A stretch of DNA of 38,572 bases from Synergistaceae bacterium (GTDB lineage: Bacteria; Synergistota; Synergistia; Synergistales; Aminobacteriaceae), in assembly GCA_009778055.1 (NCBI GenBank), contig WRKN01000001.1, forward strand, positions 1-38,572. The letters run 5' to 3'. Under the pieces are notes generated by a model. It did no database searches. It saw nothing but the letters and a program-made list of their open reading frames with translations, and had not been told where the DNA came from. The translations under genes and the position numbers were made by a program. Below are positions 31-26,311 of the stretch, in pieces; the stretch's first letter is position 1, and each line of letters starts with the position of its first letter.

Positions 31-3000
31 TCAACGCTTTTTCTGAAAAGCCTTATTAGCTTTATCGCGCCAATAAGCGGCCTTAACAAGGTCTTGATCC
101 ACTCCATCGCCGGTTTCGTACATAACGCTAACATTGTATTGCGCCTCGGCATTTCCCGCCTCGGCGGCCTTAAGGTACCAGGAAAAAGCCTTAGCGTGGT
201 CTTGTTCTACTCCTTCGCCTTTATCGTACATAGAACCGAGGCTGTTTTGTGCCTTGGAATGTCCTGCTTCGGCAGCCTTGCGATACCAGTAAAAAGCCTG
301 AGCGTAGTTATGTTCCACTCCTTCGCCGTCGTACATAGCGCCAAGATTGTATTGCGCCTCGGCGTCCTTCCTAATATCCCGCGGAGGGAAAGTCTTTTTC
401 TCTCGGTTGTTATCGTCCCAATACGGGAAGTCGTAGAATCTCGGCAGGCGGTAGTCCAAAAAACGCTCCAATTCCACGTAATTCGGATATTGGTGTTCCA
501 TCTTCCTGAATGTGGGGTCGTGCCTCCAGTAATTTCGATGAAGCAGCTCGTGGTAAATGACGTACTTGACCACCTCGCGCGGAACTTGGGAGGAATTGAG
601 CAACAGGTTGATCAGTATGTCGCTGGCAGTTTTCCCGTCCTCCAGTGCTACTTGAATATACTGCCCGTAACGGCTTTGATAAGGCCTGTCCGTCCAGCGT
701 ATGGAGCGGATACCGGGGTTGGTTCCGCCAAACTGTTCATCGATGACTTCTTGCATCAACTGTTCGACGTCGTAGGCCCCGTCGATCTCGAACGGAAGCC
801 GCGCCGTTTCCGGGAATGGAACGACAGCGCATCCCGGCCCTCGCCCATCGGGGTAATTCATGTAATGAAAAATACGTTCCCTGTACTTTGGCAAAAAACC
901 GAACAGACTTTCGATTATCGGATATTTAGCGAACAATTCATCCGGGTAAGTCATGATGTTCAAGTTTTCTTTACGTATTTTTTCCGCGACCACCTGTGGA
1001 TCGATCTCGTCCCGGTCGTTGAATTGGAACAACTCGGGCGGTTCTGTTCCCTGGCTCAGATTACTCAGAAAAACCTCCAGGTCTTTTTCGGACGGGCGCA
1101 CGCAGAATCCGCCGAAATATTTGTTCATCACCTCGTTCAAGCCGTTCGGCAAGCCGGAGGTGTTGAAATCCGCAATCAGCTCTTCGTAACCATGCACCTG
1201 ATCTTCAAACACCAACAAAACGTAGTCTTCGTCATCTTTAACCAAGTTATACCAGCCGTAGGGCATGGCAATGGAACTATTCAACTGCCCGGAGCCACTT
1301 TGAGCCTTGTCGTAAGCGGCTCGTATCACGGCCCAAGGGATGAATACAGTATCTCCCGCCACTCCTGCAACGCCCGGCAGCGGTTCCGGTTCGGCCTTGA
1401 CCAGCCACTCCGGGTTGAGCCAGTAGTTGTAGCGATCCCAACTGTCATGGAAGTCGACGATGGTCGCGGTCTCCGTTCCTCCGACGTTGCTGCCGCGCAT
1501 TGCTCGCCCGATCATCTGCATCAGCAGTACGTCGCTGCCCGTCGGGCGAGTGAGCATCACGGTCTGAATACCTGGAACGTCGCTGCCTTCCGTCATTATG
1601 TTGATATTGACCAGGACGTCCAGTTTATCGTTCCTGAATTGTTCGATGATCTTATTATTCTCCATTGGGTTTCCGCTGTAAACGCAGCCGCTCTTTACGC
1701 CTTTTTTTACAAGGTCTTCGTGCAACGTTTGGGCATGTACGGTATTCAGCGCGAAAATCAGCGTCTTTTTGTACCTGTCGCGGTTCTTCATGTAATGATC
1801 GATAATCAGGTTGTTGCGCTTTTTTGAGTCCGCGATTTTTTTAGCCAGCGACTCGGGAATATTATTCAACTGAGCCATCTGCCTGGCTTCGTCTTTGGAG
1901 ATCGACGACTCGAAGTTTTCCCCCGTTTCTATCCGCTCCACTTCCGGGTCTGCCAGAAATTTTCCCGTGATCAATTTACCCATCGAAATGTCGTAAATTG
2001 GAGGCCAGCCGAAAATCTTCTGCAAGTAGGCGGTTTGTCTGTTAGGGACGCTGTCTTCTTTTTTATCGATATATCCTCTGATCGGGGTGGCCGTCAGTCC
2101 AAGAAGTTTCGCGTTTTCATTCCGATCCTGAATGAAACGGATGGTGTCGAGGTAGGTCTTCGCTATAGCATGGTGCGCCTCGTCAACGACAATAATGAGC
2201 TTCTCCCTCAGAACCGACTCCAGAAAGTCCAGCCTGTTATAGACGGACTGAACGGACAGGAAAATCGCGTCATCGTCGCGCTCCACGCTTTTGATGCCCT
2301 CGTGTTCGCCGGATACGCATATCAATTGAAAACGTTCTTTTGTGGAGTTTGGGTGGAGTTTGATCAATGGGCTGTTGTCGTAAAAAGCTCCCGCGGCCTG
2401 ATTCAGCAGCATATGGCGATGGGCCAGCCACACCACCTGATAACCGATGGAGATCATGTAGCGCAGCAAAAAGTACGCGGTCGTCATGGTCTTTCCGCTG
2501 CCGGTAGGCATCACGAGCATTCCGGTTTTTTTGCCTTTTTGCAAAAACGCGTCTTGCAGATTGGCAATTGCGTCCTTTTGAAACGGAAATAGATTGAAGT
2601 CGTTCGCGCTGCTGTCGCGCAGGTTCACGACCGGAGGTCTTTGAGCGAACCGCGACGGGGCTTCTTCCCCTTCGCAGCCGACGCTCAATAGCACGGCGGC
2701 GACCTTTTTCGCCCTGTCCGCGGTCATGGGTTGCCTTTCAAAGTCATCGCGCAGAGAGGCGGCGTACATATTGATATCTATATCCTTCGGAGCGTCCATA
2801 ACCTCGCGGAGCTTATCCGGGTATTTCCCGAAAAAATACCGCCCAATTTCCTTTTGAAACCGCGTCACGAACGCCTCGTCCGGTTTTGGATAGTGCCGGT
2901 TCAATCCGGTCGCCAGAAAGGCGGGGTCGTCAGTGTCAACCGACGGCTTGCAGTCGGGCGGCGCTTTGCCGCTGTCCAGTATATCGAGAAGAAAATCCGA

Positions 3001-3045
3001 GTCAAAGTTCGCCCAGGTAAACGTAGAACCTTTCCCATTTGGCAT
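31..3045 (-). CDS. SF2 DEAH-type helicase fused to a DUF45/YgjP-like HExxH zincin motif and three C-terminal Sel1 (TPR-like) repeats, 1004 aa
   Basis: The ORF is uninterrupted. Helicase motifs are present: Walker A 'LVMPTGSGKT', motif II 'IIVVDEAHH', motif III 'LGLTATP', motif VI 'LLMQMIGRAMRG'. The zincin-like motif is 'VIYHELLHRNYWRHDPTFRKMEHQYPNY'. Three ~36-aa repeats of the type 'AEAQYNLGAMYDGEGVEHNYAQAFYWYRKAAEAGH' lie at the C-terminus and show as a ~108-nt DNA periodicity at ~100-420. An SD-like 'AAAGGGG' lies upstream of the ATG at 3045. Confidence 0.85.
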   Translation of the reverse strand: MPNGKGSTFTWANFDSDFLLDILDSGKAPPDCKPSVDTDDPAFLATGLNRHYPKPDEAFVTRFQKEIGRYFFGKYPDKLREVMDAPKDIDINMYAASLRDDFERQPMTADRAKKVAAVLLSVGCEGEEAPSRFAQRPPVVNLRDSSANDFNLFPFQKDAIANLQDAFLQKGKKTGMLVMPTGSGKTMTTAYFLLRYMISIGYQVVWLAHRHMLLNQAAGAFYDNSPLIKLHPNSTKERFQLICVSGEHEGIKSVERDDDAIFLSVQSVYNRLDFLESVLREKLIIVVDEAHHAIAKTYLDTIRFIQDRNENAKLLGLTATPIRGYIDKKEDSVPNRQTAYLQKIFGWPPIYDISMGKLITGKFLADPEVERIETGENFESSISKDEARQMAQLNNIPESLAKKIADSKKRNNLIIDHYMKNRDRYKKTLIFALNTVHAQTLHEDLVKKGVKSGCVYSGNPMENNKIIEQFRNDKLDVLVNINIMTEGSDVPGIQTVMLTRPTGSDVLLMQMIGRAMRGSNVGGTETATIVDFHDSWDRYNYWLNPEWLVKAEPEPLPGVAGVAGDTVFIPWAVIRAAYDKAQSGSGQLNSSIAMPYGWYNLVKDDEDYVLLVFEDQVHGYEELIADFNTSGLPNGLNEVMNKYFGGFCVRPSEKDLEVFLSNLSQGTEPPELFQFNDRDEIDPQVVAEKIRKENLNIMTYPDELFAKYPIIESLFGFLPKYRERIFHYMNYPDGRGPGCAVVPFPETARLPFEIDGAYDVEQLMQEVIDEQFGGTNPGIRSIRWTDRPYQSRYGQYIQVALEDGKTASDILINLLLNSSQVPREVVKYVIYHELLHRNYWRHDPTFRKMEHQYPNYVELERFLDYRLPRFYDFPYWDDNNREKKTFPPRDIRKDAEAQYNLGAMYDGEGVEHNYAQAFYWYRKAAEAGHSKAQNSLGSMYDKGEGVEQDHAKAFSWYLKAAEAGNAEAQYNVSVMYETGDGVDQDLVKAAYWRDKANKAFQKKR

Positions 3046-3080
3046 TTGGGTTTGACCCCTTTCTGTATGATAGGTAAAGT

Positions 3081-3125
3081 ATAATTTCTTTTATAAAGGG
3101 AAAAAGGGACAATTTGTACCCCAAT
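3081..3125 (+). repeat. Copy 1 of a ~45-nt imperfect direct repeat (core 22-mer AAGGGACAATTTGTACCCCAAT at 3104-3125), preceded by TATAAT at 3080-3085
   Basis: Hand alignment with 4470-4515. The core 22-mers differ at 2 positions, and an upstream 'ATAATTT' plus A/T-rich stretch is shared. It lies between the 179-aa gene stop (3147) and the helicase start (3045). Confidence 0.6.
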
Positions 3126-3146
3126 TTCGATATGACGCTCCGTCGC

Positions 3147-3686
3147 CTATGCGCGGCGGATTTTTACTGCCGTGTATTTTTCTACCTCTTCCATAAAAAC
3201 CATAATGTTATCTTTGTCCATCAGCGCGTGGATGGTGATGTAGTCGAAATCGTTAGTTTCGTTCAGCTCTCCTCCCTGAAGGCGAAACAATTTATTGGCA
3301 TCGTCCAGCGAAAGGCCGAGTCCAACCGCGAATTTAGCGAGGGCGGCACGTGTAACCCGCCGCTTCAGCCCCATATATGACCTGTAAGTGTTGTACTGTA
3401 TTTCACAGCCTTCGCCCTCCACATCTCCCCATACCGTACGCTCTATGGACTTCGCTTTTCCCGTCTCCTTCTTTTGAGATTGCAGGACGGCCTCCAGCAT
3501 CAGCCGCATGGAATGAACCAACTCGCGCTGATCTTGCTGCTTTTTATAGCCGCCGGCGACCCTGGCTATCGGTTCGATAATTCCCCTGGTTTCAAAATGC
3601 CTGTTCCTAAACTCAGTTTCATCAACCATATTGAAAGCCTCTTTCCGCTTGTGGCCGTTTAGTATAAACATTGTTTCCTTGTACAT
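3147..3686 (-). CDS. Hypothetical protein with a C-terminal XRE-like helix-turn-helix region (179 aa; start uncertain, alternative ATG at 3629 has the better SD 'GAAAGAGG')
   Basis: 'RRVTRAALAKFAVGLGLSLDDANKLFRLQGGELNETNDFDYITIHAL' resembles HTH_3-type regulators common in Clostridia-like mobile modules. It is co-oriented with the helicase gene. Confidence 0.55.
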   Translation of the reverse strand: MYKETMFILNGHKRKEAFNMVDETEFRNRHFETRGIIEPIARVAGGYKKQQDQRELVHSMRLMLEAVLQSQKKETGKAKSIERTVWGDVEGEGCEIQYNTYRSYMGLKRRVTRAALAKFAVGLGLSLDDANKLFRLQGGELNETNDFDYITIHALMDKDNIMVFMEEVEKYTAVKIRRA

Positions 3687-3738
3687 TCTACAAAATTTTT
3701 CTTACTTTTTCGCTTTCCATTCACATTACGCGGCAAAT

Positions 3739-3921
3739 TTACCGCTTATTAACACTGTGTAATCCAGTATCTTCCTTTTCACATCTCGACGCACAGTTCG
3801 CAGACTTTTTCACAGAGTTCGTGGCTTTGAGAGTATTACACGCAAATTCAAATAAAGTGCCTTGGTTTTCAGGTGACAATAAGTTAAAGGTGTCAATTAT
3901 TGCTTGTACCTTGTCACACAA
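3739..3921 (-). CDS. Small hypothetical protein (60 aa, TTG start)
   Basis: A strong SD (GGAGGGGG) lies ~7-10 nt upstream of the TTG. It carries a 'LLSPENQGTLFEFACNTL' helix resembling the C-terminal 'LTLENQESLLLVAQELL' of the adjacent XRE protein. It is first in the minus-strand gene string 3921->31. Confidence 0.4.
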   Translation of the reverse strand: MCDKVQAIIDTFNLLSPENQGTLFEFACNTLKATNSVKKSANCASRCEKEDTGLHSVNKR

Positions 3922-3945
3922 AATACTTCCCCCTCCGTTTAGGTA

Positions 3946-3971
3946 GTTTTAGATATAATTATATCTAAAAC
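3946..3971. promoter_or_regulatory. Perfect 26-bp palindrome GTTTTAGATATAA|TTATATCTAAAAC in a divergent intergenic region (candidate operator / bidirectional promoter core)
   Basis: Both 13-nt arms were checked by hand as exact reverse complements. The palindrome contains 'GATATAAT' on both strands. It lies between the divergent starts at 3921 (-) and 4075 (+). Confidence 0.6.
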
Positions 3972-4074
3972 AGTCACATCCGCAAGATTGCTACTCTACC
4001 ATTACGGCTAATCCATTGCGCCTCAATTTGAAATCGGGTATTCTTTCCTTAAAGTTGGAAGGTGATTTAACGCC

Positions 4075-4440
4075 ATGCACAATAGACTGAGGGCCGTTCG
4101 CAAGGCCCTGCGCTTAAACCAGAAGTGCTTTGCTGAACAAATAGGCTTGAGCCAAAATTCGCTGTCGACAATTGAAAAGAATCGTGCCCCAGTTACAGAA
4201 AAGAATGTAAAGCTGGTGTGCGTGACATTCAATGTCAATGAGCAATGGCTGCGCACAGGTAGCGGTGAGATGTTCTGCGCGTCACCCTACGAGAAAAAAT
4301 TACGAGACATCTGCATGAATCTGACGCTGGAAAATCAGGAATCTCTCTTGCTCGTCGCTCAGGAACTACTGAAGATTCAAAACAGAATCTTCAGCGCGCC
4401 TCATGAAAACCATATAGATGTGATCAAAGAGGACAGCTAG
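4075..4440 (+). CDS. XRE-family (Cro/cI-type) HTH transcriptional regulator, 121 aa
   Basis: 'LRAVRKALRLNQKCFAEQIGLSQNSLSTIEKNRAPVTEKNVKLVC' is a classic HTH_3 signature. An SD 'GGAAGGTGA' lies upstream of the ATG. Confidence 0.85.
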   Translation: MHNRLRAVRKALRLNQKCFAEQIGLSQNSLSTIEKNRAPVTEKNVKLVCVTFNVNEQWLRTGSGEMFCASPYEKKLRDICMNLTLENQESLLLVAQELLKIQNRIFSAPHENHIDVIKEDS

Positions 4441-4469
4441 AATTCTGTTTACTGTTTCACAGTGACATC

Positions 4470-4515
4470 ATAATTTTTTTCTTATCAAAAAATAAGGGAC
4501 AGGTTGTACCCCAAT
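4470..4515 (+). repeat. Copy 2 of the ~45-nt imperfect direct repeat (core AAGGGACAGGTTGTACCCCAAT at 4494-4515)
   Basis: Same orientation as copy 1. It lies between the XRE gene stop and the Bro-N-like fragment. Confidence 0.6.
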
Positions 4516-4619
4516 AATTGCGGCGCTATGATTTTTTCTCCGCTCAAGCGAAAGCTGATAGACTTGGTGCGATTGATATTTTTTGTGGACACTTAGCGGT
4601 TATTGGAGGCTTTAGTATT

Positions 4620-4793
4620 ATGAGTGAATATAAAAACAAAATCAAATTATTTGAAGAAAAGCAGATTCGTGCCATTTGGGATGAAGAAGCTGAAAAATAG
4701 TGGTTCTCCGTTTTGGACATCATTGGTATTTTGACCGATCAACCGGACTACATAAAAGTTAGAAATTATTGGAAATGGCTAAAAAATAAACTG
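4620..4793 (+). pseudogene. Decayed N-terminal fragment of a Bro-N/antirepressor-like gene, with an in-frame TAG at 4698-4700
   Basis: 'MSEYKNKIKLFEEKQIRAIWDEEAEK*WFSVLDIIGILTDQPDYIKVRNYWKWLKNKL' matches, from memory, the N-terminus of a widespread Bro-N-type family ('...WDEE.EKWYFSVVDVVGVLT...NYWK.LK.RL'). The TAG sits where that family has W (TGG). Similarity stops after ~57 residues, although such proteins are usually far longer. GGAGG lies at 4605-4609. Confidence 0.5.
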
Positions 4794-4838
4794 ATGTCAG
4801 GTTTTGGATATCGGATTTTTACCTGGAGGTACAGCAAG

Positions 4839-5321
4839 GTGAAGTATGTCTATTTTGCCGTAGTTTTGGCGGCCGCCTTATCCATCGACAGATTGACTAA
4901 ATTTTTAGCCCTGGCGTATCTCCCGGGAAAAGTCGATTACGCCGGCGGTTTCCATATATTTGCCGTTTACCGCAACTATGGAATGACGTTCGGTATTTTG
5001 AAAGACAATCCTCAAGCCTGTTTGATTCTGGCGTTGTTGGTGATAGGGCTTCTTGTTCTTGCCCTCGTCAGGTACAAAGAAGCGCTTTTGACTCCTGGAG
5101 TTGCTTTTTTATTGGCCGGAGCTCTGGGAAACCTCTCTGACAGGTTGATATACGGTTACGTAGTCGACTGGATTCACATAGTAGTCTACATAAATTTGGC
5201 GGATATATGGCTTTGTTTAGGCGCGCTCCACTTGTTTTACCGTATAGATTCAGTTCGTCGGAGGGGGAAGGGGGCGCAGGCGCACTTTGAACGATACCGG
5301 CATTTCACCAAGCGTAACTGA
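4839..5321 (+). CDS. lspA: Lipoprotein signal peptidase (signal peptidase II)
   Basis: Motifs 'DRLTK', 'NYGMTFG', 'GALGNLSDR', 'VVDWI' and 'INLAD' are present. The GTG at 4839 is preceded by GGAGG (4825-4829). An alternative ATG at 4794 has no SD. Confidence 0.85.
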   Translation: MKYVYFAVVLAAALSIDRLTKFLALAYLPGKVDYAGGFHIFAVYRNYGMTFGILKDNPQACLILALLVIGLLVLALVRYKEALLTPGVAFLLAGALGNLSDRLIYGYVVDWIHIVVYINLADIWLCLGALHLFYRIDSVRRRGKGAQAHFERYRHFTKRN

Positions 5322-19598: not shown

Positions 19599-19643
19599 CC
19601 CATACTATTTTCAAAATGGAACGAGGTTTATTATACATCAACT

Positions 19644-20366
19644 TTATACGTCTAGCGTTACCCAATCCGCTTTAAGCGATTTTTCTTCCTCAAGAGACCC
19701 TATACTTTGTGCATAACGATCAAGAGATTCTTGGATTCTGAGTACAACTTCTGTACCCTCAAATTTTTCCAACAATTCATCTTGCTCCTTATTGAAAGAG
19801 TCACACAAGCAATCTATTCCTCTATTTTGTACGTGTTCTTTTATACTATTCCATGTTTCTACCCTAATCTCAGACGGATAATTTGCAACAAGAAAAGCAA
19901 CATCATAGGTATCCCGTGCCTTATCACGACCAATAAACGCCGCTGTTTTTAATTCTGCCATTCGTGCGATGGAATATACTCTCAGACCTTGAATAATCTC
20001 TGCGTCCTTTTCTTCAATTTCATGACGCATGGAACACTCAATTTTGAGAACATCGGGTTGTTTTGTGAAAGCCGATTGATAATGTACCATATATCTTTTG
20101 GTTGTTTCAGTATTTTTTTTGACGTTTATGCAGTCTATATCCAGCTTCACAGATTCAGCAGCTTTTAAGATGTGCTTCTGGAAATCAGTAACCGTACCGG
20201 GAGTGAGGTCAAAATCCATGTCTTCTGAAAAGCGGTCTAATCCACGTGTCAGCAACAGGGATGTCCCTCCTTTGAGGATTGCTGATTTTTCGTTTTTTGA
20301 TACTTCAAAAGCAATCGCTTTCATGAAATCAATACGTTCATTTTCCTGTTCATTAAATTCTTTCAT
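19644..20366 (-). CDS. AbiEii/AbiGii (DUF1814, MenT-like) nucleotidyltransferase toxin-family protein, 240 aa
   Basis: The NTase motif is 'LKGGTSLLLTRGLDRFSEDMDFDL'. The C-terminal motif is 'IGRDKARDTYDVAFL'. An SD AAGGAGGG lies upstream. The gene is AT-rich relative to its flanks. Confidence 0.85.
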   Translation of the reverse strand: MKEFNEQENERIDFMKAIAFEVSKNEKSAILKGGTSLLLTRGLDRFSEDMDFDLTPGTVTDFQKHILKAAESVKLDIDCINVKKNTETTKRYMVHYQSAFTKQPDVLKIECSMRHEIEEKDAEIIQGLRVYSIARMAELKTAAFIGRDKARDTYDVAFLVANYPSEIRVETWNSIKEHVQNRGIDCLCDSFNKEQDELLEKFEGTEVVLRIQESLDRYAQSIGSLEEEKSLKADWVTLDV

Positions 20367-20381
20367 GGCTTCAAACCCTCC

Positions 20382-20951
20382 TTAACTTTTGTAACCAGGA
20401 ACACGTTCTTTTTCTATCCATCGTATTAACATTTCTTGCTCCTCAATACTAAGATAAGGGAGCATTGTCGCAGCTTTTTCCAGCAGAAAACATTTTTCTT
20501 CCTCTGTGTCCAAGTAATCTTCAGAAGAACCATATAAGTAACTAGGATATTTCCCTTCTTTTATGCGCTCGTATAAGAGGTCAAGGATTGCCCGAAAATG
20601 GTTCGCCGCATGGGGTTCTCCCTTTTCTACATTAAATCCTTTTTTACGTAAAATCTCTCCGCATTTGTAAATACCGTAATTCTTGAAAATGTGATTAGTG
20701 TTAAGATACTCTCTTTCCCCAGCTACTTTTATAAATTTGACATGTTTTGCATCCCTGCAATAATAAATGCTTAAAAAATGCCAATCTCCACTTGTGCCTT
20801 CCGGCGCGGGAAGGTTTAATGCCGCCATCCCGGAGATGTATCTGTTCTCTGACAGGTCGTCAGGTATTTTTGCTTGGTATATTTTACGAGTATATTCTTT
20901 TGTTTCTTCACTCGCCTGATTTTCTTCGATGGCCGCTACAGTCATTTTCAT
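20382..20951 (-). CDS. Hypothetical 189-aa protein, upstream partner of the AbiEii-like gene (candidate non-canonical antitoxin)
   Basis: The ORF is clean and separated from the NTase gene by 15 nt. No wHTH or AbiEi-like pattern was recognised by eye. The composition matches that of the NTase gene. Confidence 0.75.
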   Translation of the reverse strand: MKMTVAAIEENQASEETKEYTRKIYQAKIPDDLSENRYISGMAALNLPAPEGTSGDWHFLSIYYCRDAKHVKFIKVAGEREYLNTNHIFKNYGIYKCGEILRKKGFNVEKGEPHAANHFRAILDLLYERIKEGKYPSYLYGSSEDYLDTEEEKCFLLEKAATMLPYLSIEEQEMLIRWIEKERVPGYKS

Positions 20952-20986
20952 CGCTACCTTTCGTTGTCTTTAACCCATGAACTACC

Positions 20987-22468
20987 TTAACGTCTCCAAG
21001 TCGAGGGGAAAAACAGGAGAACCACGGCGTAAAGCTCCAGCCGCCCGGCCAGCATACAGAAAGAAAACGTCCATTTGACCCCGGGCGGAACCCAGCCGTA
21101 AGCTCCCAGCGCGCCTGGAGTTCCAAGTCCGGGGCCCAGGTTGGTGAGGCTCGCCGTCACGCCGGAAACGGCGGCGGCCACGTCGAGTTTGTTGTTTCCC
21201 ATAGCCAGCGCCGCCGCCGTCGCGCCGATGAAAAGCACGACGTAAAGTGTGAAAAACGCCATAACCCCGTTCATGACCCTCGGCGGGATCACTTTTCCAT
21301 TCACTTTCGCGTGCAGGACGGCGTTCGGATGCAGCTTATTCAACAGCTCCACCCTCATGCAGCGCGCCAGCATAAGCACTCGCGCAACTTTCAGGCCGCC
21401 GCCGGTGGAACCGGCGCACCCGCCGATAAACGCCAAAAGTAAAATTATAAACCGCGTGAAATATGGCCACGCAATATAATTTTCGGATGTAAAGCCTGTT
21501 GTCGTCATAAAACCGGCTGTTTGAAACGCGGCCGCCCGGAGCGAATGTTCCGCCCCGCGGCAGAAGCCTCCGGCAAACAGCACGGCGGCTATCAAAAGCG
21601 TCGCCGCGAGGAAAAGCCGCGCGTAGAGTAAAAATTCCTCGTTACGCCGCGCCTTGTCCCAAAAGCCGGCCAATATCAAAAGATAAAGCGAAAAACTGAC
21701 CCCCGACGCGAGCATGAAAAACGTGACGACCCATTCAATGTAAGGAGAGCCGTAATGGGCTATCGAGGCGTTCTTGGTCGAAAATCCGCCTGTTGCCACT
21801 GTTCCGAAGGAATGAACGAGCGCGTCAAAAAAATCCATGCCGCCCAGCATCAAAAAAAACGTCTCCGCGCACGTCAGGAACAGGTAGACTTCCCAGAGGA
21901 GCAGCGCCATTTGCTGTACGCGCGGGGTCAGTTTTTCCGGCGTGGGGCCTGGAAACTCGGCTTTGTAGAGTTCCATGCCGCCGACCCCCAGAAAAGGGAG
22001 AACCGCGAGGCTGAGAACTATTATCCCCATACCCCCCAGCCAATGCGTCAGTCCGCGCCAGAACAGTATGCCGCGCGGCAGAACCTCGACGTCCGCTATG
22101 ACGCTGGCGCCGGTTGCCGTAAAGCCGGAAATCGACTCAAAAAACGCGTCGGTATAGGAACTGAGCGCCCCGGAGAACAGATACGGCAGCGCCCCCACGG
22201 CCGAGGCGATCACCCAGGACAGCCCCACCACGGCAAACGCCTCGCGGATTCCGAGTTCTTCATAGTCCCCGCGCTTCACGGAACCTATCCTGCCCCCTCC
22301 CGCCATGAAAAGGGCGTAGCTGATGGTAATCCCGCACGCCAGGGAGGCGGCGAAGGCGCGGATGTCGTCGGTACGGTCGGCAGCCGACCACATCATGGGA
22401 AAAACCATGCAGAGGGAAACCACCAAAGACACGAGCGAGAGAACCCGCGCCACCAGCCTAAGCCTCAA
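20987..22468 (-). CDS. trkH: Trk/Ktr-type potassium uptake membrane subunit TrkH
   Basis: The protein is polytopic with repeated selectivity-filter-like 'TGF/TGG' segments ('SGFTATGAS', 'TVATGGFS', 'TTTGFTS', 'STGGGLK'). It is adjacent to trkA. Confidence 0.9.
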   Translation of the reverse strand: MRLRLVARVLSLVSLVVSLCMVFPMMWSAADRTDDIRAFAASLACGITISYALFMAGGGRIGSVKRGDYEELGIREAFAVVGLSWVIASAVGALPYLFSGALSSYTDAFFESISGFTATGASVIADVEVLPRGILFWRGLTHWLGGMGIIVLSLAVLPFLGVGGMELYKAEFPGPTPEKLTPRVQQMALLLWEVYLFLTCAETFFLMLGGMDFFDALVHSFGTVATGGFSTKNASIAHYGSPYIEWVVTFFMLASGVSFSLYLLILAGFWDKARRNEEFLLYARLFLAATLLIAAVLFAGGFCRGAEHSLRAAAFQTAGFMTTTGFTSENYIAWPYFTRFIILLLAFIGGCAGSTGGGLKVARVLMLARCMRVELLNKLHPNAVLHAKVNGKVIPPRVMNGVMAFFTLYVVLFIGATAAALAMGNNKLDVAAAVSGVTASLTNLGPGLGTPGALGAYGWVPPGVKWTFSFCMLAGRLELYAVVLLFFPSTWRR

Positions 22469-22485: not shown

Positions 22486-23850
22486 TTAATCGAAAAATTC
22501 CGCCGCCGCGCGCATTTTGTACGCGGAAGCAAACAGTATCAAGTGATCGCCCCCACGCAGGCGCGTTGTCCCGTCCGGCACGAAAACGCGCTCGCCGCGC
22601 CCCACCAGGGCTACCAGCACGTTTTTAGGCACGTTGCACTCCGACAGGGGGACATTTTCAACGGCGTGCCCTTCGGGCAAAACCGTTTCAAGCATCTCGG
22701 CGTCTATTTTTTCGATAATGGACAGGGCTTTGGAGCCGCCGGGATAACGCACGCAGCGCAGCATAAACAAAGCCAGAGCCTCGTTGGGGCTTACCACGGC
22801 GTCTATCATGGGTATGAGTTCGGGCATGTTGAGGTAGCGCTTGTGCCGCACCACGGCAATACATTTATGGGCCCCCATCGACTTCGCCATGACGCCGTAC
22901 ATCAGGTTGACCTCGTCCGACTCCGTAGTGGCCACGTACCCGTCCGCGCAGTCAATCCCTTCCTCCGTCAGAAGCAGCTCGTCCGCTCCGTCGCTGTTCA
23001 AAACTATTGTGCGGCTCAGTTCGGTGGACAGTTTTTCGCACCGTTCACGGTTGTGGTCTATGAGCCTGACGTCCACATTACGATAGTTGGTCTCCAGCCC
23101 GTCGGCGACCTGAAAACCCAATTTACCCCCCCCGGCTATGAACACGCGTTTCAAAGGACGCGAATAACGAAGCTGAAACAGCTTTTCCAGATTCCATACC
23201 TGTTCTTTACCGGAGACCACGTAGCACAAATCCCCTTCTCCCAGAACGGTATCGCCGTCCGGCACGATACTTTCCCCGCTCGTCTTTTTTATGTAAACGA
23301 TCAGCAGGGCGATGCCGGGATTCGCCGCGCGCGCCTGCTTTAGGGAAAGCCCGGCCAGCGGGGAGCATCCGGCGACGTGGAAGGCGTATATCGCGGCCCG
23401 CCCCCCGAGAAGTTCGGCGGTGTGAACGGCGGAACTCACGGAGAGCAATTCCAGAATCTCGCGGGCGACGGAACGTTCCGGCGATATCATCACATCTATG
23501 CCGAGGTCCTTTCCCCAGGTCGGGGAATCGGTAAATTCAAGCCCGCGGGCCCGCGCTACCACTCTTTTAACCCCCGCGTGTTTGGCTACCCAGCAGGCGA
23601 GTATGTTGGCCTCGTCCCGCCCCGTGCAGGCTATCAGAAAATCGATGTCGCACCCGTCGCGGACTCCGGCTTCGTAAAGCACCCGAGGGCGAACCCCGTT
23701 CCCGCATATAACACGGACGTCCAGCTCATTGTCGGCCTTCGCGGCGCGATCCGGGTTTTCTTCCACCGCGTTTACGTCGTGCCCTTCGGCGGACAGGGCG
23801 GCCGCCACGCTGAAGCCTATCTCGCCCAATCCCACGACAACTATCTTCAT
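22486..23850 (-). CDS. trkA: Trk system NAD-binding subunit TrkA (tandem RCK domains)
   Basis: Two Rossmann motifs are present: 'KIVVVGLGEIGFSVA' and 'RVFIAGGGKLGFQVA'. Confidence 0.9.
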   Translation of the reverse strand: MKIVVVGLGEIGFSVAAALSAEGHDVNAVEENPDRAAKADNELDVRVICGNGVRPRVLYEAGVRDGCDIDFLIACTGRDEANILACWVAKHAGVKRVVARARGLEFTDSPTWGKDLGIDVMISPERSVAREILELLSVSSAVHTAELLGGRAAIYAFHVAGCSPLAGLSLKQARAANPGIALLIVYIKKTSGESIVPDGDTVLGEGDLCYVVSGKEQVWNLEKLFQLRYSRPLKRVFIAGGGKLGFQVADGLETNYRNVDVRLIDHNRERCEKLSTELSRTIVLNSDGADELLLTEEGIDCADGYVATTESDEVNLMYGVMAKSMGAHKCIAVVRHKRYLNMPELIPMIDAVVSPNEALALFMLRCVRYPGGSKALSIIEKIDAEMLETVLPEGHAVENVPLSECNVPKNVLVALVGRGERVFVPDGTTRLRGGDHLILFASAYKMRAAAEFFD

Positions 23851-23854
23851 GATT

Positions 23855-24643
23855 TCAGCTTACCGCCCACACGGCGTAAAAACGCGCGACGGAGTGCCCG
23901 TCCCCGTCGGCGCGCGTCATGTCGTAAACGAAAGCGCGGGTCTTTTCATCCGGGCTGTCCGCATGATCGGCGGCCTTTACCCTCACCCGCGCCGTCTCTC
24001 CATATTTCAGGCTTATTCGGAACTCCGCGTCCGCCTCGCGCACCTGCCAGTCCATAAGATCCAGGGGCGTCGCCTCATACATCCATTCAAAGTACACGGC
24101 GTTGTTGACGTGCCCGTTGGCGTCCAGATCGTGAAAACGCACCGGGAAATCCGTTTCACGCAGAACGGGCGCGTCTTTGAGGGCTGGTCCGTTCAGTTTC
24201 GGGATAGAGGCGAACTCCGGGTCTATGGGAGGGTCGTCCGCCACGTCGCGAAAAACCTCCGGCAAGCGCTGTAATGCCCGCACAGGCCGTCCGGCGGCCA
24301 AGTCGATTAAAACCCAGGAAGTTCTCGCGAGAATCAGCGTCTCCGCTTCGTTGGCACGCGCAAAAACGCGAAAAGCGCGCAAAGTATGGAAACCGTCGTT
24401 CACAGTGTGACGGGTTTCGATCACTATCGCCTCATCCATAGCCGGCAGGCGCCTTTCCACTTTCAGTTGATAACGTAAAAGCACCCAACCGTACCCTCGC
24501 CGTATCAGATCGCCCGGCGAACCGTCGTTATCCATTACCGCAAGACTTGCCGTATCTTGAAGGCGGTTGAGAAGGGCCCGTATTTTGATCTCGTTGGTAC
24601 AAGCCGTCTCGGACGGCATTACCGTTAGTTTCTCCCTGTACAT
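23855..24643 (-). CDS. Acyl-ACP thioesterase family protein
   Basis: The length (~260 aa) fits a double hot-dog protein, with 'RFHDLDANGHVNNAVYFEWM' in the second half. The gene lies 4 nt upstream of trkA. Confidence 0.8.
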   Translation of the reverse strand: MYREKLTVMPSETACTNEIKIRALLNRLQDTASLAVMDNDGSPGDLIRRGYGWVLLRYQLKVERRLPAMDEAIVIETRHTVNDGFHTLRAFRVFARANEAETLILARTSWVLIDLAAGRPVRALQRLPEVFRDVADDPPIDPEFASIPKLNGPALKDAPVLRETDFPVRFHDLDANGHVNNAVYFEWMYEATPLDLMDWQVREADAEFRISLKYGETARVRVKAADHADSPDEKTRAFVYDMTRADGDGHSVARFYAVWAVS

Positions 24644-24747
24644 TTAATCATCTTCCCAAATTGAACAAATAAATCTTGAAGCCTTTCATTTATGATATCA
24701 TTCAGTTCGTGTCCTCGGGGGTAAAACGAAGAAGAAAATCCCGGTGG

Positions 24748-24806
24748 TTATTCACAGTCTAAACCTCTTTTCATTGTGGATAAGTGTATAACTGGATAGA
24801 AATGCC
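24748..24806 (+). repeat. oriC module copy 1 (DnaA box TTATTCACA + inverted perfect box TGTGGATAA + conserved flank)
   Basis: Hand alignment to 24871-24930 gives about 52 of 60 positions identical, including a 30-nt exact core AACCTCTTTTCATTGTGGATAAGTGTATAA. Confidence 0.8.
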
Positions 24807-24870
24807 CTAAAAGGCTCTCGTTTTTGTGGATAATTCTCCACATCGTTTTGAGCAAAGCAAAAAAGCCCCA

Positions 24871-24930
24871 TTATCCACATTCTGAACCTCTTTTCATTGT
24901 GGATAAGTGTATAATCAGATAGAAATAGCC
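24871..24930 (+). repeat. oriC module copy 2 (TTATCCACA + inverted TGTGGATAA + conserved flank)
   Basis: See copy 1. The copies are offset by 123 bp. Confidence 0.8.
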
Positions 24931-24979
24931 GACATGGCTTCTGTGTTTGTGGATAACCGGGCTATAGGAGTGAGCGGGA

Positions 24980-26311
24980 TTGCAGAATGATTTGCGGGCG
25001 CTGTGGCAGGACATTGTAGACAAAGCTGTGCCAAACCTCCCCGAGGGAAGCGCGGATCTGTGGTTCACGACATGTTCGCCGACGTCAATTGAAGACGGCA
25101 AATTGGTTGTGGACGTCGCGAACGTCTTTGCCAGAGAGCAAATGGCAAGCCGTTTTCTGGACGAGCTGAATAAAGCCGCTCAAAGCACGGGCGAGGTGTC
25201 CGGGGTGTGCCTGACGGTAATTGAAGGCGACGAGGACAGAAAGACGGAATGGGCGGAGCGCGCCGAAAAAACCGTACCGAAACCATCCAAAAGCAACCTT
25301 AACCTGAATCCAAACTACGAATTTTCATCGTTTGTGGTGGGTAAGTCGAATCGCCTTGCCCACGCCGCCAGTCTGGCTGTCGCCGAAACTCCCGGCGACG
25401 CCTACAATCCTCTTTTTATATGGGGAGGGGTCGGCCTTGGAAAAACCCACCTGATGCACGCCATATGCCACTATACGCTGAGCAAAAGAAGCGACCTCAA
25501 CGTAGTTTACGTAAGCTCGGAGAAGTTCGTCAACGAGTTCATTCAATCAATCCGCACCGGACAGGGCCAGGAGTTCAAGAGCAAGTACCGTAACGTGGAC
25601 ATCCTTCTCATAGACGACATTCAGTTTATGGGGGACAAAAGTTCGAGTCAGGAGGAATTTTTCCATACCTTCGACAGTCTTCGCGTGGCAAACAAACAGA
25701 TTGTCATATGTTCCGACCGTCCCCCCTCCGAGCTGCGCAACGTGGAAGACCGTCTGGTCAGTAGATTCGCGTGGGGACTGGTCACGGACATTCAGCCGCC
25801 GGATATCGAAACGCGAATAGCGATACTGCAAAAAAAAGCGCGCATGAGAGCGTACGAAATCCCGGAAGAAGTGGTGAATTTTCTGGCCCAGCGCATACCA
25901 AGCAACATAAGAGAGCTGGAAGGCGCTCTTAACCGTGTTATAGCATGTTCGGAGCTGTCAGGAGAATCAATAAGCATAGACAACTCCTCCATATGGCTTA
26001 AAGACGTTTTGAGGGAAGACATAAAAGCCCCGACAACTATAGGAAGCATACAGAGCCTGGTGGCGGAAAGTTTCGAGATGAGCGTGGACGACCTGGTAAG
26101 CTCGAAGCGCACGGCGGAGATAGCCATGGCCCGGCAGGTGGCCATGTATCTGTGCCGTGAACTCACCGAATCGAGCCTCCAGCACATTGGGCAGGCTTTT
26201 AGAAAGAAGGATCACACGACGGTGATACATGCTCACAAAAAAGTAAGTCATATGGTCAAGAGCGAAAACGGCATAAAAAACATTGTGGACAACATAAAGA
26301 ACAAGTTGTGA
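24980..26311 (+). CDS. dnaA: Chromosomal replication initiator DnaA (TTG start)
   Basis: 'FSSFVVGKSNRLAHAAS', the AAA+ Walker A 'GGVGLGKTHLMHAI', 'LLIDDIQF', and the domain IV 'TAEIAMARQVAMYLCRELTESSLQHIGQAFRKKDHTTVIHAHKKV' are present. AGGAG lies 9 nt upstream of the start. Confidence 0.97.
   Translation: MQNDLRALWQDIVDKAVPNLPEGSADLWFTTCSPTSIEDGKLVVDVANVFAREQMASRFLDELNKAAQSTGEVSGVCLTVIEGDEDRKTEWAERAEKTVPKPSKSNLNLNPNYEFSSFVVGKSNRLAHAASLAVAETPGDAYNPLFIWGGVGLGKTHLMHAICHYTLSKRSDLNVVYVSSEKFVNEFIQSIRTGQGQEFKSKYRNVDILLIDDIQFMGDKSSSQEEFFHTFDSLRVANKQIVICSDRPPSELRNVEDRLVSRFAWGLVTDIQPPDIETRIAILQKKARMRAYEIPEEVVNFLAQRIPSNIRELEGALNRVIACSELSGESISIDNSSIWLKDVLREDIKAPTTIGSIQSLVAESFEMSVDDLVSSKRTAEIAMARQVAMYLCRELTESSLQHIGQAFRKKDHTTVIHAHKKVSHMVKSENGIKNIVDNIKNKL

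Follow-up and report, generated by a model that had tools for sequence, protein, structure and literature searches.

Between the potassium-transporter gene trkH and a spermidine-synthase-like gene in a Synergistaceae genome (GCA_009778055.1, contig WRKN01000001.1) lie two genes of low GC content, one of which resembles AbiEii toxins. What kind of system this pair represents, and what the protein encoded upstream of the toxin contributes to it, is the question raised by the locus. Our analysis of the window, i.e. the whole stretch of 38,572 nt, and of homologous loci identifies it as a known kind of toxin–antitoxin (TA) pair of the phage-defence type, the antitoxin of which is a stand-alone putative neutraliser domain that lacks the customary DNA-binding portion. 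The features discussed below are listed in Table 1.

Table 1. Coordinates of the two-gene islet, its flanking genes, and the conserved elements of its products
Feature	Position	Strand	Remarks
Low-GC islet with two-gene module	19599..20986	−	between trkH stop (20987) and start of 530/534-aa gene (19586/19598)
trkA	22486-23850	−	precedes trkH; Pfam TrkA_N/TrkA_C
trkH	20987..22468	−	host gene upstream of islet; Pfam TrkH, E 3e-66
Partner (putative antitoxin) gene, 189 aa	20382..20951	−	intact ORF
Conserved putative neutralisation module, residues 24-189 (~165 aa)	20385..20882	−	alignment A1; common to all family members and fusion proteins
Loop N46-L-P-A-P-E51-G-T53-S-G55-D56-W57-H58	20778..20816	−	A1 columns nearly invariant
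Second signature motif A116-N-H118-F-R120-A-I-L-D124	20580..20606	−	start of first long helix
Intergenic spacer, 15 nt	20367..20381	−	starts with Shine-Dalgarno GGAGG (20377-20381) for toxin gene
Putative toxin gene, AbiEii/DUF1814 nucleotidyltransferase, 240 aa	19644..20366	−	bare core, without C-terminal extension
Predicted catalytic and phospho-acceptor motif R45-F-S47-E-D49-M-D51-F-D53	20208..20234	−	invariant in toxin alignment A4
Motif III K140-x-x-A-x-x-x-x-R147-D-K-A-R151-D152-T-Y-D155	19902..19949	−	read from translation; aligns with JHP933

Genomic context and base composition

The islet is foreign, probably horizontally acquired DNA inside the potassium-transporter (trk) operon. Its GC content is 0.386, compared with a window mean of 0.53, and no 1.35-kb sliding window elsewhere in the 38,572 nt has a lower value (z = -2.8). 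The GC3 values of the 189- and 240-aa genes are 0.35 and 0.32, respectively, against 0.66-0.73 in the flanking genes. All four genes in question (trkH, the 189-aa gene, the 240-aa gene, and a gene of 530 or 534 aa) are encoded on the minus strand; a gap of 35 nt separates the end of trkH from the start of the 189-aa partner gene, and the 530/534-aa gene, which gave a weak match to a spermidine-synthase domain (22.8 bits; cut-off, 22.9), begins 45-57 nt downstream of the 240-aa gene. The first-pass annotation, made from the sequence of the window, had correctly described the islet as AT-rich and located between these two neighbours, but the end that it gave (20995) reaches 9 nt into trkH. Both genes exist as it described them, and all of the peptides quoted from their products (YISGMAALNLPAPEGTSGDWHF, LSIEEQEMLIRWIEKE, GG...SEDMDFD, and KARDTYD) were found. 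It was also right that no integrase or transposase lies beside the islet; neither these genes nor a tRNA gene abut it, no direct repeats flank it, and no conjugation genes were found near the pair. The same arrangement is present, without any difference, in an independent assembly (L106).

The partner gene comes first and is separated from the toxin gene by 15 nt, with a Shine-Dalgarno sequence in front of the latter, as annotated previously. The majority of homologous loci have the two genes overlapping by 4-8 nt or lying a few nucleotides apart, and their translation is therefore probably coupled. A sigma70 consensus scan, which may not suit this host, detected neither a sigma70-like promoter nor a terminator-like site on the minus strand from trkH to the partner gene, and no operator-like inverted repeat was found in the 35 nt upstream of the partner start. 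Transcripts of the pair probably originate upstream, in the trkA-trkH unit, and read through into the islet.

The predicted toxin

Judged by its sequence, the 240-aa protein is a nucleotidyltransferase (NTase) of the AbiEii/MenT type (DUF1814, COG2253-type), in agreement with the first-pass annotation. It matches Pfam PF08843 (AbiEii; E 2.8e-20, cut-off passed) and the PADLOC AbiEii model PDLC02307 (E 1.4e-51), and contains NTase motifs I-III, i.e. GGTSLLL, RFSEDMDFD, and K140...R147..R151-D152..D155. Among the homologs (A4), R45, S47, and both aspartates (D49 and D51) are invariant, as are the K, R, R-D, and D of motif III. The solved structures nearest to it, 4o8s/4ok0 (E ~1e-20), are those of Helicobacter pylori JHP933 (PMC7205606, PMC4125220), with which it has GL[DN]RFSED[ML]DFD in common.

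The R-x-S-x-D-x-D spacing is identical to that in MenT3 (TglT) of the Mycobacterium tuberculosis MenAT systems (MenT1/MenA1 and MenT3/MenA3, the latter also known as TglT/TakA): R45, S47, D49, and D51 correspond to R76, S78, D80, and D82 of the MenT3 sequence R76-T-S78-K-D80-F-D82, in which phosphorylation takes place on S78 and R76 does not vary (PMC7205606). In AbiEii, the corresponding residues are R63-S64-T65. A predicted serine phospho-acceptor beside the catalytic aspartates, which is a feature of type VII TA toxins, is thus present.

The partner protein

The partner has 58 close homologs, and its family comprises 561 cluster representatives at 50% identity (E<=1e-3). Because of these 561 clusters and the Pfam AbiEii match of the toxin, both genes are considered real rather than chance ORFs. 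An alternative ATG at 20945 would yield a 187-aa product, which is the form recorded in public data (P0001). In the AF2 model of the partner (pLDDT 90.2, pTM 0.84), residues 1-23 form a disordered acidic tail that is not conserved in alignment A1; homologs align to ~87% of the query, starting at residue ~22.

Two motifs stand out in the conserved part. Loop 46-58 is modelled as coil, and the block of residues 51-60 has the lowest pLDDT (81) in the folded part. Because of its conservation, the model, and the analogy to the D85-E86-I87 loop of AbiEi, which reaches into the active site of AbiEii (preprint 10.64898/2026.01.19.700257), it is a candidate for a toxin-contacting loop that would insert into the active site. 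In the second motif, A1 shows no variation at A116, H118, R120, A121, and D124, and R-A-[IV]-x-D is kept even in the most distant family members (Campylobacter and Marinobacter). The DWH and NH residues have been lost from the Marinobacter proteins and from the minimal members found in Campylobacter, yet these pair with AbiEii.

The partner gave no match in Pfam at E<=1, and hence contains no AbiEi_1-4, DUF6088, or any HTH domain; no match was obtained in NCBIfam or PHROGs, or in a profile search of PDB, AbiEi included. The earlier statement that it lacks a winged HTH (wHTH) or a recognisable DNA-binding motif was therefore confirmed in these four collections. No enzyme family was among the results from Pfam, NCBIfam, and PDB, and structure comparison returned no significant fold relatives.

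Linkage, co-divergence, and modularity

Co-occurrence of the two families elsewhere, on which the first-pass annotation had staked its proposal, was observed, but the module gene does not always precede a DUF1814 gene. An AbiEii ORF lies directly downstream of the module gene, usually with a 4-8 nt overlap, in 11 of the 18 testable lineages (70% identity); one lineage has toxin fragments only, and six have no adjacent AbiEii. The paired lineages include Proteobacteria, Actinomyces, Saccharibacteria, Thermomicrobiales, Campylobacter, cyanobacteria, and Synergistaceae. In many pairs, from Actinomyces and Saccharibacteria, the toxin likewise consists of the core only, about 245 aa long. A module-family gene is located upstream of all eight plasmid toxins that belong to the subclade of the window toxin, and distances between partners and between toxins are strongly correlated over 17 pairs (Mantel r 0.89, p<=5e-4), i.e. 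the two proteins have co-diverged. In several cases (L011, L041, and L067/68), the toxin has decayed and the partner has been kept. One close homolog (L108) precedes an NTP_transf_2 nucleotidyltransferase instead of AbiEii; in view of this case and the six lineages without AbiEii, pairing is not a fixed rule, and further partners or functions are conceivable for the module. Orphan module genes adjoin relaxase genes.

Those relatives of the partner that can be expected to bind DNA have an extra domain for this, placed N-terminally of the module and distinct from it: an AbiEi_4/DUF6088 wHTH in P0017, P0018, and P0190, a MarR-type wHTH in P0120, P0125, P0151, and P0161, a RelB ribbon-helix-helix in P0100, and an Xre HTH in Marinobacter proteins. 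Fusions to four kinds of DNA-binding domain are what would be expected of a toxin-neutralising module. The module is also fused to Fic (P0171).

In the nearest relatives, the AbiEii toxin is extended by a C-terminal KfrB domain. In L107, the partner of which is 72% identical to that in the window, the order is a giant SNF2/ResIII helicase, the partner, AbiEii fused to KfrB (28.9 bits; cut-off, 25), and a VirD4/TraG-type coupling protein. L109/L110 share this layout and additionally encode HipA_C+KfrB and HepT+KfrB, and the toxin in L024-26 is likewise AbiEii+KfrB.

Relation to catalogued AbiEi proteins

The upstream protein had been put forward as a new antitoxin family, which proved incorrect insofar as three 'AbiEi' HMMs of PADLOC-DB v2 (PDLC02280, 02284, and 02285) cover the family. 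The best of them, PDLC02280, matches partner residues 33-183 over 145 of 153 model positions (E 4.9e-35), and for the minimal Campylobacter members the match to PDLC02285 extends along its whole length (E 4e-69). With adjacent matches to an AbiEi HMM (PDLC02280) and an AbiEii HMM (PDLC02307), the pair fits the PADLOC definition of 'AbiE', and PADLOC would therefore label the locus as such. Formally, a profile search thus places the partner in an existing AbiEi family, the outcome that the first-pass annotation had itself named as refuting its claim, but this label seems to derive from gene neighbourhood and not from homology. P0190, one of the fusion proteins, contains both a complete canonical AbiEi (6-193) and, further on, the module (222-377); the two match non-overlapping sets of 'AbiEi' models, and none of the roughly 15 canonical models that match the DUF6088 part is PDLC02280, 02284, or 02285.

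Alignment of the module (A1) with DUF6088-type AbiEi (A7) by hhalign gave a probability of 0.08%, i.e. no detectable profile similarity, with a weak control in which a bona fide DUF6088 gave nothing by sequence. The top Foldseek match of the partner was AbiEi at a non-significant E of 0.76, and again the control was weak (a bona fide DUF6088 model reached only E 0.018 and TM 0.28 on 6y8q); because this control barely scores, profile and structure methods are weak for the AbiEi family. In fold, the module may be very remotely related to AbiEi, the reference here being the AbiEi/Rv2827c C-terminal domain. Since one defence-gene catalogue already carries the module, the locus counts as a variant of an established system, not a new system; the partner family is catalogued in PADLOC, without an entry in Pfam or NCBIfam, under what is a catalogue name and not a characterisation.

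Comparison with known systems

AbiE of Streptococcus agalactiae and Lactococcus lactis is a type IV (now proposed type VII) TA and abortive-infection system. The window pair resembles it in having a DUF1814 toxin with motifs I-III and a predicted Ser/Thr phospho-acceptor at position -2 relative to the first catalytic Asp, and in being bicistronic, the antitoxin gene preceding that of the toxin. AbiEi binds to AbiEii and, through an acidic loop, triggers its auto-phosphorylation at T65 (preprint 10.64898/2026.01.19.700257), and the C-terminal domain (CTD) of AbiEi alone is enough for antitoxicity (PMC3985639); by analogy, the window partner would not need a DNA-binding domain for neutralisation, which is likely to proceed by binding and induced auto-phosphorylation. 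Unlike AbiEi, the partner has neither a wHTH nor a Pfam match to AbiEi, COG5340, or DUF6088. Autoregulation through inverted repeats in the promoter, as in AbiE, is not possible for such a protein, and its signs are absent (35-nt gap, no sigma70-like promoter by consensus scan, no repeat, and no DNA-binding domain); the pair would not be autoregulated, because the antitoxin lacks DNA-binding ability. The toxins also differ, that of the window belonging to a JHP933-like subclade of about 240 aa and AbiEii having ~290 aa.

Use of unlike antitoxins by DUF1814 toxins has a precedent in MenAT. MenA1 is short, has no HTH, and is not known to be related to COG5340. The PDB profile search revealed no link in sequence between the module and either MenA1 or MenA3. 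JHP933 and ICEHptfs3 V20/V21 are cargo genes in ICEs, whereas the window pair resides in a chromosomal operon; related Campylobacter plasmid toxins have partners of the module family.

The PanA domain (DUF4065, 'Panacea'; see also the NetFlax paper, PMC10440598) was reportedly described by Kurata and co-workers in 2022 as a hyperpromiscuous antitoxin domain. The module is similar in concept, a small domain for toxin neutralisation that is found either by itself or attached to DNA-binding domains of various kinds, and may likewise serve more than one type of toxin, as hinted by the Fic fusion and the NTP_transf_2 neighbour. Unlike that of PanA, however, its promiscuity is only hinted at, most partners being AbiEii, and it gave no match to DUF4065 (Pfam, E<=1). 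A regulator of the COG4861 type, known from COG4861-COG4849 pairs as another family of DUF1814 partners, found no support, as judged from Pfam and NCBIfam matches only.

Proposed mechanism and alternative explanations

We put the probability at roughly two in three that the islet represents a TA module of the AbiE/MenAT class, made up of two genes and gained by horizontal transfer, with a DNA-binding-less antitoxin that binds and neutralises the toxin and with transcription by read-through from trk. By analogy with MenT and AbiEii, the 240-aa toxin would attach nucleotides to the 3' ends of tRNA and thereby stop translation. The 189-aa protein would be its cognate antitoxin, consisting solely of the neutralising module and the acidic tail. 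The module may dock on the active-site face of the toxin, probably via loop 46-58 and the ANHFRAILD helix, and either block the site or, in the manner demonstrated for AbiEi/AbiEii and MenA/MenT, push Ser47 into a position for auto-phosphorylation, turning the toxin off. Read-through from trkA-trkH would supply the transcript, from which the toxin would be translated by its own strong Shine-Dalgarno sequence. A phage-defence phenotype is conceivable.

Alternatively, the pair may derive from an effector/immunity pair of a conjugative element, the toxin being delivered with conjugation and the module conferring immunity; the islet would then be a stripped-down chromosomal derivative now serving mainly immunity to incoming effectors, or simple addiction, rather than phage defence. 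The KfrB extensions of the nearest relatives' toxins beside a T4SS coupling protein (L107 and L109/L110; KfrB also in L024-26) and the relaxase genes next to orphan copies are consistent with this, as is a C-terminal region shared by AbiEii-like, Fic, and CtkA cargo of an H. pylori ICE, which might be a secretion signal (PMC12443045). We nevertheless regard this origin as unlikely, given that the window toxin has no KfrB extension, that conjugation genes are absent nearby, that a literature search found no secretion function of KfrB, and that core-only toxins are frequent in Actinomyces and Saccharibacteria. An enzymatic antitoxin, which reverses the toxin product (e.g. by trimming tRNA 3'-end additions) or modifies the toxin covalently (e.g. 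as a kinase), is improbable: AbiEi, for which a kinase model has since been revised, binds no nucleotides and its toxin phosphorylates itself, the partner matches no enzyme family in the collections searched (Pfam, NCBIfam, and PDB), and the minimal Campylobacter and Marinobacter members pair with AbiEii despite having lost the DWH and NH residues. What speaks for it is the presence of (near-)invariant polar residues in both motifs (E51, D56, and H58; H118, R120, and D124), of which H58, H118, R120, and D124 could equally mark an active site, together with the original report of MenA3/TakA as a kinase (PMC7205606), the proposal of Dy et al. that the AbiEi CTD might strip GMP from targets, and the antibiotic adenylyltransferases and 5UVD among the structural neighbours of AbiEi (Beck et al.).

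The alternative 'new sensor component' of the first-pass annotation gained no support. A subunit for phage sensing or regulation, or else a co-factor needed for toxin activity, would suit a fold without known relatives that is paired with other genes in some lineages, but is very improbable, as the upstream position, translational coupling, RelB/Xre/MarR/AbiEi_4 fusions, and orphan copies are typical of antitoxins and not of sensors, and retention of the partner after toxin decay is the pattern expected of a protective component. Equally remote is an inert remnant, i.e. a decaying passenger without current function: both ORFs are full length with all conserved motifs intact, assembly L106 agrees, and the decayed cases elsewhere look different (frameshifted toxins), although the insert is isolated, with two genes, and no promoter of its own was detected by the sigma70 consensus scan.

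Beyond the preferred reading of an AbiE/MenAT-class TA module, a broader view of the module is speculative and rather doubtful. It would be an undescribed fold acting as a portable, semi-promiscuous neutraliser of AbiEii (and possibly of MNT-like and Fic toxins), at home on conjugative elements as immunity to T4SS-delivered KfrB toxins; the orphans by relaxases would be anti-toxin or anti-defence 'vaccines' against resident AbiE, and the window islet a captured KfrB-less derivative. If this were true, orphan copies would shield incoming plasmids from resident AbiE-type systems.

Gene organization and base composition of the islet

The partner gene, encoding a putative antitoxin, and the toxin gene are in the same reading frame and are separated by a 15-nt gap that starts with GGAGG. 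The partner gene begins 35 nt after the stop codon of the TrkH gene (Pfam, E = 3e-66), which follows the TrkA gene, and a gene lying 45-57 nt beyond the pair encodes a 530/534-aa membrane protein whose spermidine-synthase domain is borderline. The GC content of segment 19599-20986 is 38.6%, the lowest of the 38.6-kb window (mean, 53%; z = -2.8), and the GC3 values of the two genes are 0.35 and 0.32, compared with 0.66-0.73 for neighbouring genes. The low-GC two-gene islet proposed in the first-pass annotation is confirmed in its ORFs, gap, strong SD sequence, and low GC content, and so is the stated lack of an integrase or transposase: no tRNA, integrase, transposase, or flanking repeat was found at the islet borders. 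Insertion scars, sought as flanking repeats, gave only short matches at chance level, and the RNA-element search at the islet returned a single spurious sub-threshold miRNA match.

Because dnaA is located ~4 kb away, the islet DNA is chromosomal. L106, from an independent metagenome assembly, shows the same gene order, and exact-protein look-ups with the partner and the downstream 530-aa protein, made in search of an empty site, identified the same locus in L106 and no other site. Ahead of the dnaA gene (24980-26311, plus strand), GC is low (0.41-0.48) in the intergenic stretch 24400-25000. The window probably includes the region of the chromosomal origin, and the TA islet would therefore be origin-proximal.

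Features of the islet and of related loci and proteins (L numbers, fetched loci of partner homologues; P numbers, family proteins; module, the conserved part of the partner)
Feature	Locus or protein	Coordinates	Strand	Remark
Partner ORF	window	20382-20951	minus	189 aa, intact
Toxin ORF	window	19644-20366	minus	240 aa, intact
KfrB-bearing locus by T4SS coupling protein	L107	5520-6950
KfrB-bearing locus by T4SS coupling protein	L024	589-1953
KfrB-bearing locus by T4SS coupling protein	L109/L110	4528-10507
KfrB-bearing locus by T4SS coupling protein	L108	1711-2946
Orphan module	L017	2540-3022
Orphan module	L018	2399-3016
Orphan module	L029	749-1255
Orphan module, split partner gene	L037	2148-2402		N-terminal fragment
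Orphan module, split partner gene	L037	3040-3324		C-terminal fragment
AbiEii-slot replacement	L013	4655-5446		Actinomyces
AbiEii-slot replacement	L072	3621-4418		Actinomyces
AbiEii-slot replacement	L077	3617-5694		Actinomyces
AbiEii-slot replacement	L079	3623-5203		Actinomyces
Module with non-AbiEii neighbour	L108	375-1724
AbiEi_4/DUF6088 winged HTH + module	P0017, P0018, P0190
MarR-type winged HTH + module	P0120, P0125, P0151, P0161
RelB ribbon-helix-helix + module	P0100
Xre HTH + module	Marinobacter plasmids

The toxin

Both Pfam (E = 2.8e-20) and PADLOC (AbiEii, E = 1.4e-51) identify the toxin as an AbiEii/DUF1814 nucleotidyltransferase, in line with the earlier assignment of the downstream gene. 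The nearest solved structures (E ~1e-20) are 4O8S and 4OK0, which represent the H. pylori protein JHP933 (PMC4125220, PMC7205606). The motifs GGTSLLL, RFSEDMDFD, and K...R...RD..D are kept, and the motif residues R45, S47, D49, and D51 are invariant across toxin homologs. The spacing of R45-F-S47-E-D49-M-D51 equals that of R76-T-S78-K-D80-F-D82 in MenT3/TglT, in which phosphorylation falls on S78 and R76 does not vary (PMC7205606); R45-F-S47 also corresponds to R63-S64-T65 of AbiEii (preprint 10.64898/2026.01.19.700257). A 371-aa homologue (P0208), considered as a natural partner-toxin fusion, was rejected as such, being a toxin with a C-terminal extension.

The partner family

At permissive thresholds, the partner matched no entry of Pfam, NCBIfam, or PHROGs, and a profile search of PDB sequences found no relative. 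A winged HTH was tested for and is absent, as the first-pass annotation had stated, but the family that it could not recognise is already contained in PADLOC-DB under the name 'AbiEi': model PDLC02280 (153 positions) matches residues 33-183 (E = 4.9e-35), and the shorter sister models PDLC02284 and PDLC02285 match as well. Plasmid copies are labelled 'hypothetical protein' in RefSeq. A word-indexed search returned 58 homologs, mainly unnamed and 163-181 aa in length, while an exhaustive profile search yielded 561 cluster representatives at E<=1e-3 (264 at E<=1e-10). Two signatures are evident in the family alignment, namely Y-I-S-G-x-x-A-L-N-L-P-x-P-E-G-T-S-G-D-W-H and A-A-N-H-F-R-A-I-L-D. The AlphaFold2 model is confident (pLDDT, 90.2; pTM, 0.84), and the predicted fold has a disordered acidic tail of 23 residues and four short strands, and its C-terminal part is a helical bundle. 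A phage origin was considered and rejected, as no relatives were found on viral contigs, among BFVD structures, or in PHROGs. The window copy is an ordinary family member, of modest interest by itself.

The conserved part of the partner (residues 24-189, ~165 aa; hereafter, the module) is also found C-terminal to four unrelated DNA-binding domains. An optional DNA-binding domain followed by a neutralising domain is the classical antitoxin architecture and, judged from its sequence, the window partner corresponds to the putative neutralising domain alone. In one protein (P0171), the module (residues 7-153) is combined with a Fic domain (271-325), and in L108, whose partner is 60% identical, the next gene encodes an NTP_transf_2/Polbeta nucleotidyltransferase and is followed by a HEPN+KfrB gene. 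These two cases hint at a possible wider role of the module, with other nucleotidyl-transferring toxins as well.

Relationship to canonical AbiEi

In the 378-aa family protein P0190, residues 6-193 are matched end to end by about fifteen PADLOC 'AbiEi' models and by Pfam DUF6088, the AbiEi_4-type canonical AbiEi, and residues 222-377 by PDLC02280/84/85 only. Since the two halves match separate model sets, the PADLOC name 'AbiEi' spans two non-overlapping domains. P0190 itself contains a complete canonical AbiEi/DUF6088 followed by the module in tandem, and may have arisen by fusion of antitoxins of two different types.

A relationship of the module to AbiEi was considered using sequence and fold comparisons. 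Alignment of the module with 32 DUF6088/AbiEi proteins by hhalign gave a probability of 0.08%, a value from a method that is nearly blind in this family, and Foldseek found no significant match to the module model in PDB or BFVD, the first, non-significant PDB match being the AbiEi structure 6Y8Q. A folded DUF6088 protein used as a control (pLDDT, 78.8) likewise had 6Y8Q first, but with E = 0.018 and TM = 0.28, and its profile did not find AbiEi among PDB sequences. Because this positive control barely finds AbiEi, both types of search are nearly blind in the AbiEi family, and the view that the module is definitely non-homologous to AbiEi was rejected. The module may be a form of the AbiEi C-terminal domain that has diverged extremely, or it may be an analogue.

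Linkage and co-divergence with the toxin

After dereplication (70% identity) of the 101 loci that were fetched, 18 lineages had sufficient downstream DNA. A full AbiEii ORF lies immediately 3' of the partner in 11 of these, typically with a 4-8-nt overlap; one retains toxin fragments only, and six have no AbiEii. The expected association of the two families is therefore frequent but not invariable. All eight plasmid-borne toxins of the window toxin's subclade have a module-family gene upstream. Pairwise distances of partners and toxins are strongly correlated (Mantel r = 0.89, p<=5e-4, 17 pairs), which shows that the two are inherited as a unit and is compatible with, but does not prove, physical interaction. 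Where gene decay is present, it affects the toxin (L011, L041, and L067/68) and the partner is intact. Linkage, co-divergence, the modular architecture, and this decay pattern are all taken as evidence for the partner as the component that neutralises the toxin.

In one Actinomyces lineage, the slot after an intact partner is taken not by AbiEii but by a multi-pass membrane protein of ~260 aa and a protein of ~424 aa (L013, L072, L077, and L079); AbiEii is present in sister loci within that lineage. At L037, an IS200/IS605-type Y1 transposase (2462-2902) is inserted in the partner gene.

Association with conjugative elements

The nearest relatives (partners 60-72% identical) reside in conjugative elements, where genes for a VirD4/TraG-type coupling protein and a giant SNF2/ResIII helicase adjoin the pair. 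The AbiEii toxins of these relatives are longer, with a C-terminal KfrB domain, whereas the window toxin is a bare core. KfrB (PF18790, above cut-off) also ends the neighbouring HipA_C, HepT, and HEPN toxins and the >2100-aa SNF2/ResIII helicase, suggesting that several toxins of a single conjugative element have this C-terminal module in common, which might act in delivery or anchoring. Neither KfrB nor AbiEii is mentioned in the polyvalent-protein paper. Because its nearest relatives are in conjugative elements and its toxin has no such extension, the most plausible origin of the low-GC islet is mobile-element cargo of this kind, of which it would be a pared-down form taken up into a chromosomal operon.

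Module genes also occur as orphans, away from any AbiEii gene, and these adjoin conjugation or mobilisation genes: immediately 3' of the MobQ relaxase gene in Comamonas pZM22-2 and after TraI/MobA and two small ORFs in Aeromonas pKAM376_4. The L029 orphan is close to a VirD4-like gene, and the one in L037 lies upstream of a gene for a MobA/MobL relaxase. An anti-defence role has been proposed for orphan antitoxins located in the leading regions of plasmids (PMC11541004). That conjugative elements use the module for promiscuous immunity or for anti-defence is an idea drawn solely from such side observations, and we regard it as improbable.

Proposed mechanism and regulation

AbiEi binds AbiEii, an acidic loop (D85-E86-I87) enters the active site, and T65 is auto-phosphorylated; MenA1/MenT1 and MenA3/MenT3 behave in the same manner (preprint 10.64898/2026.01.19.700257). 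Residues 46-58 of the partner form a near-invariant, acidic, flexible loop with the lowest pLDDT within the folded part, an obvious candidate for the same role. Since the toxin keeps the acceptor Ser and the catalytic Asp residues and the partner has this candidate loop, the partner most likely would bind the toxin directly and act by steric block and/or induced auto-phosphorylation of Ser47. The interval between trkH and the pair contains no sigma70-like promoter, terminator, or operator-like repeat and the partner has no DNA-binding domain, for which reasons expression of the pair probably depends on trkA-trkH read-through and is not autoregulated.

The stretch that separates the toxin stop (19644) from the downstream 530-aa gene, which starts at 19586/19598, contains TGTATAAT (19630-19637, minus strand), an extended -10 element with a perfect match to the consensus. 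It was noted by eye and was not among the sites given by the two-hexamer scan; the islet may supply a promoter for this host gene. Antisense within the partner gene, a strong sigma70-like match (20737-20764, plus strand; TTGACA, 16 nt, AATAAT; 11/12 match with a TG extension) faces trkH and the 5' end of the partner gene. Chance may account for this match, given the AT-rich DNA: 5 sites were found and 2.8 +/- 1.3 were expected.

Significance and other features of the window

Toxins of the DUF1814/AbiEii type belong to the most widespread enzymes of toxin and phage-defence systems, and their neutralisation via antitoxin-induced auto-phosphorylation is only recently being clarified. To our knowledge, mechanistic work to date has dealt only with COG5340-type AbiEi/MenA3 or the tiny MenA1. 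The present locus stands for a third, large family of DUF1814 partners (~560 clusters in many phyla). The system type, an AbiE/MenAT-class TA, is already known, and PADLOC already contains the partner family; the HTH-less module is absent from Pfam, NCBIfam, and PDB, and its predicted fold lacks a significant structural match. If the Ser phosphorylation switch is shared, unrelated or extremely diverged proteins would converge on one toxin control point, and the pair would lend itself to structural study as a minimal system free of regulation. Annotation of the family is split between 'hypothetical' (Pfam/NCBIfam) and AbiEi (PADLOC), and users should be cautious, as the latter label need not mean a canonical wHTH antitoxin. 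A study of an H. pylori ICE had already noted, next to genes of the AbiEii-like and Fic types, a putative 'AbiEi-like' gene (PMC12443045).

Region 31-5000 contains a second low-GC stretch (GC about 0.40-0.44 at 3000-5000), with small ORFs including an Xre-type HTH protein (4075-4440, plus strand) and a 179-aa ORF (3147-3686, minus strand). The adjoining 1004-aa protein (31-3045, minus strand) has helicase-like motifs and Sel1-like repeats, as judged by eye from the translation, and this stretch may be another acquired or defence-related islet.
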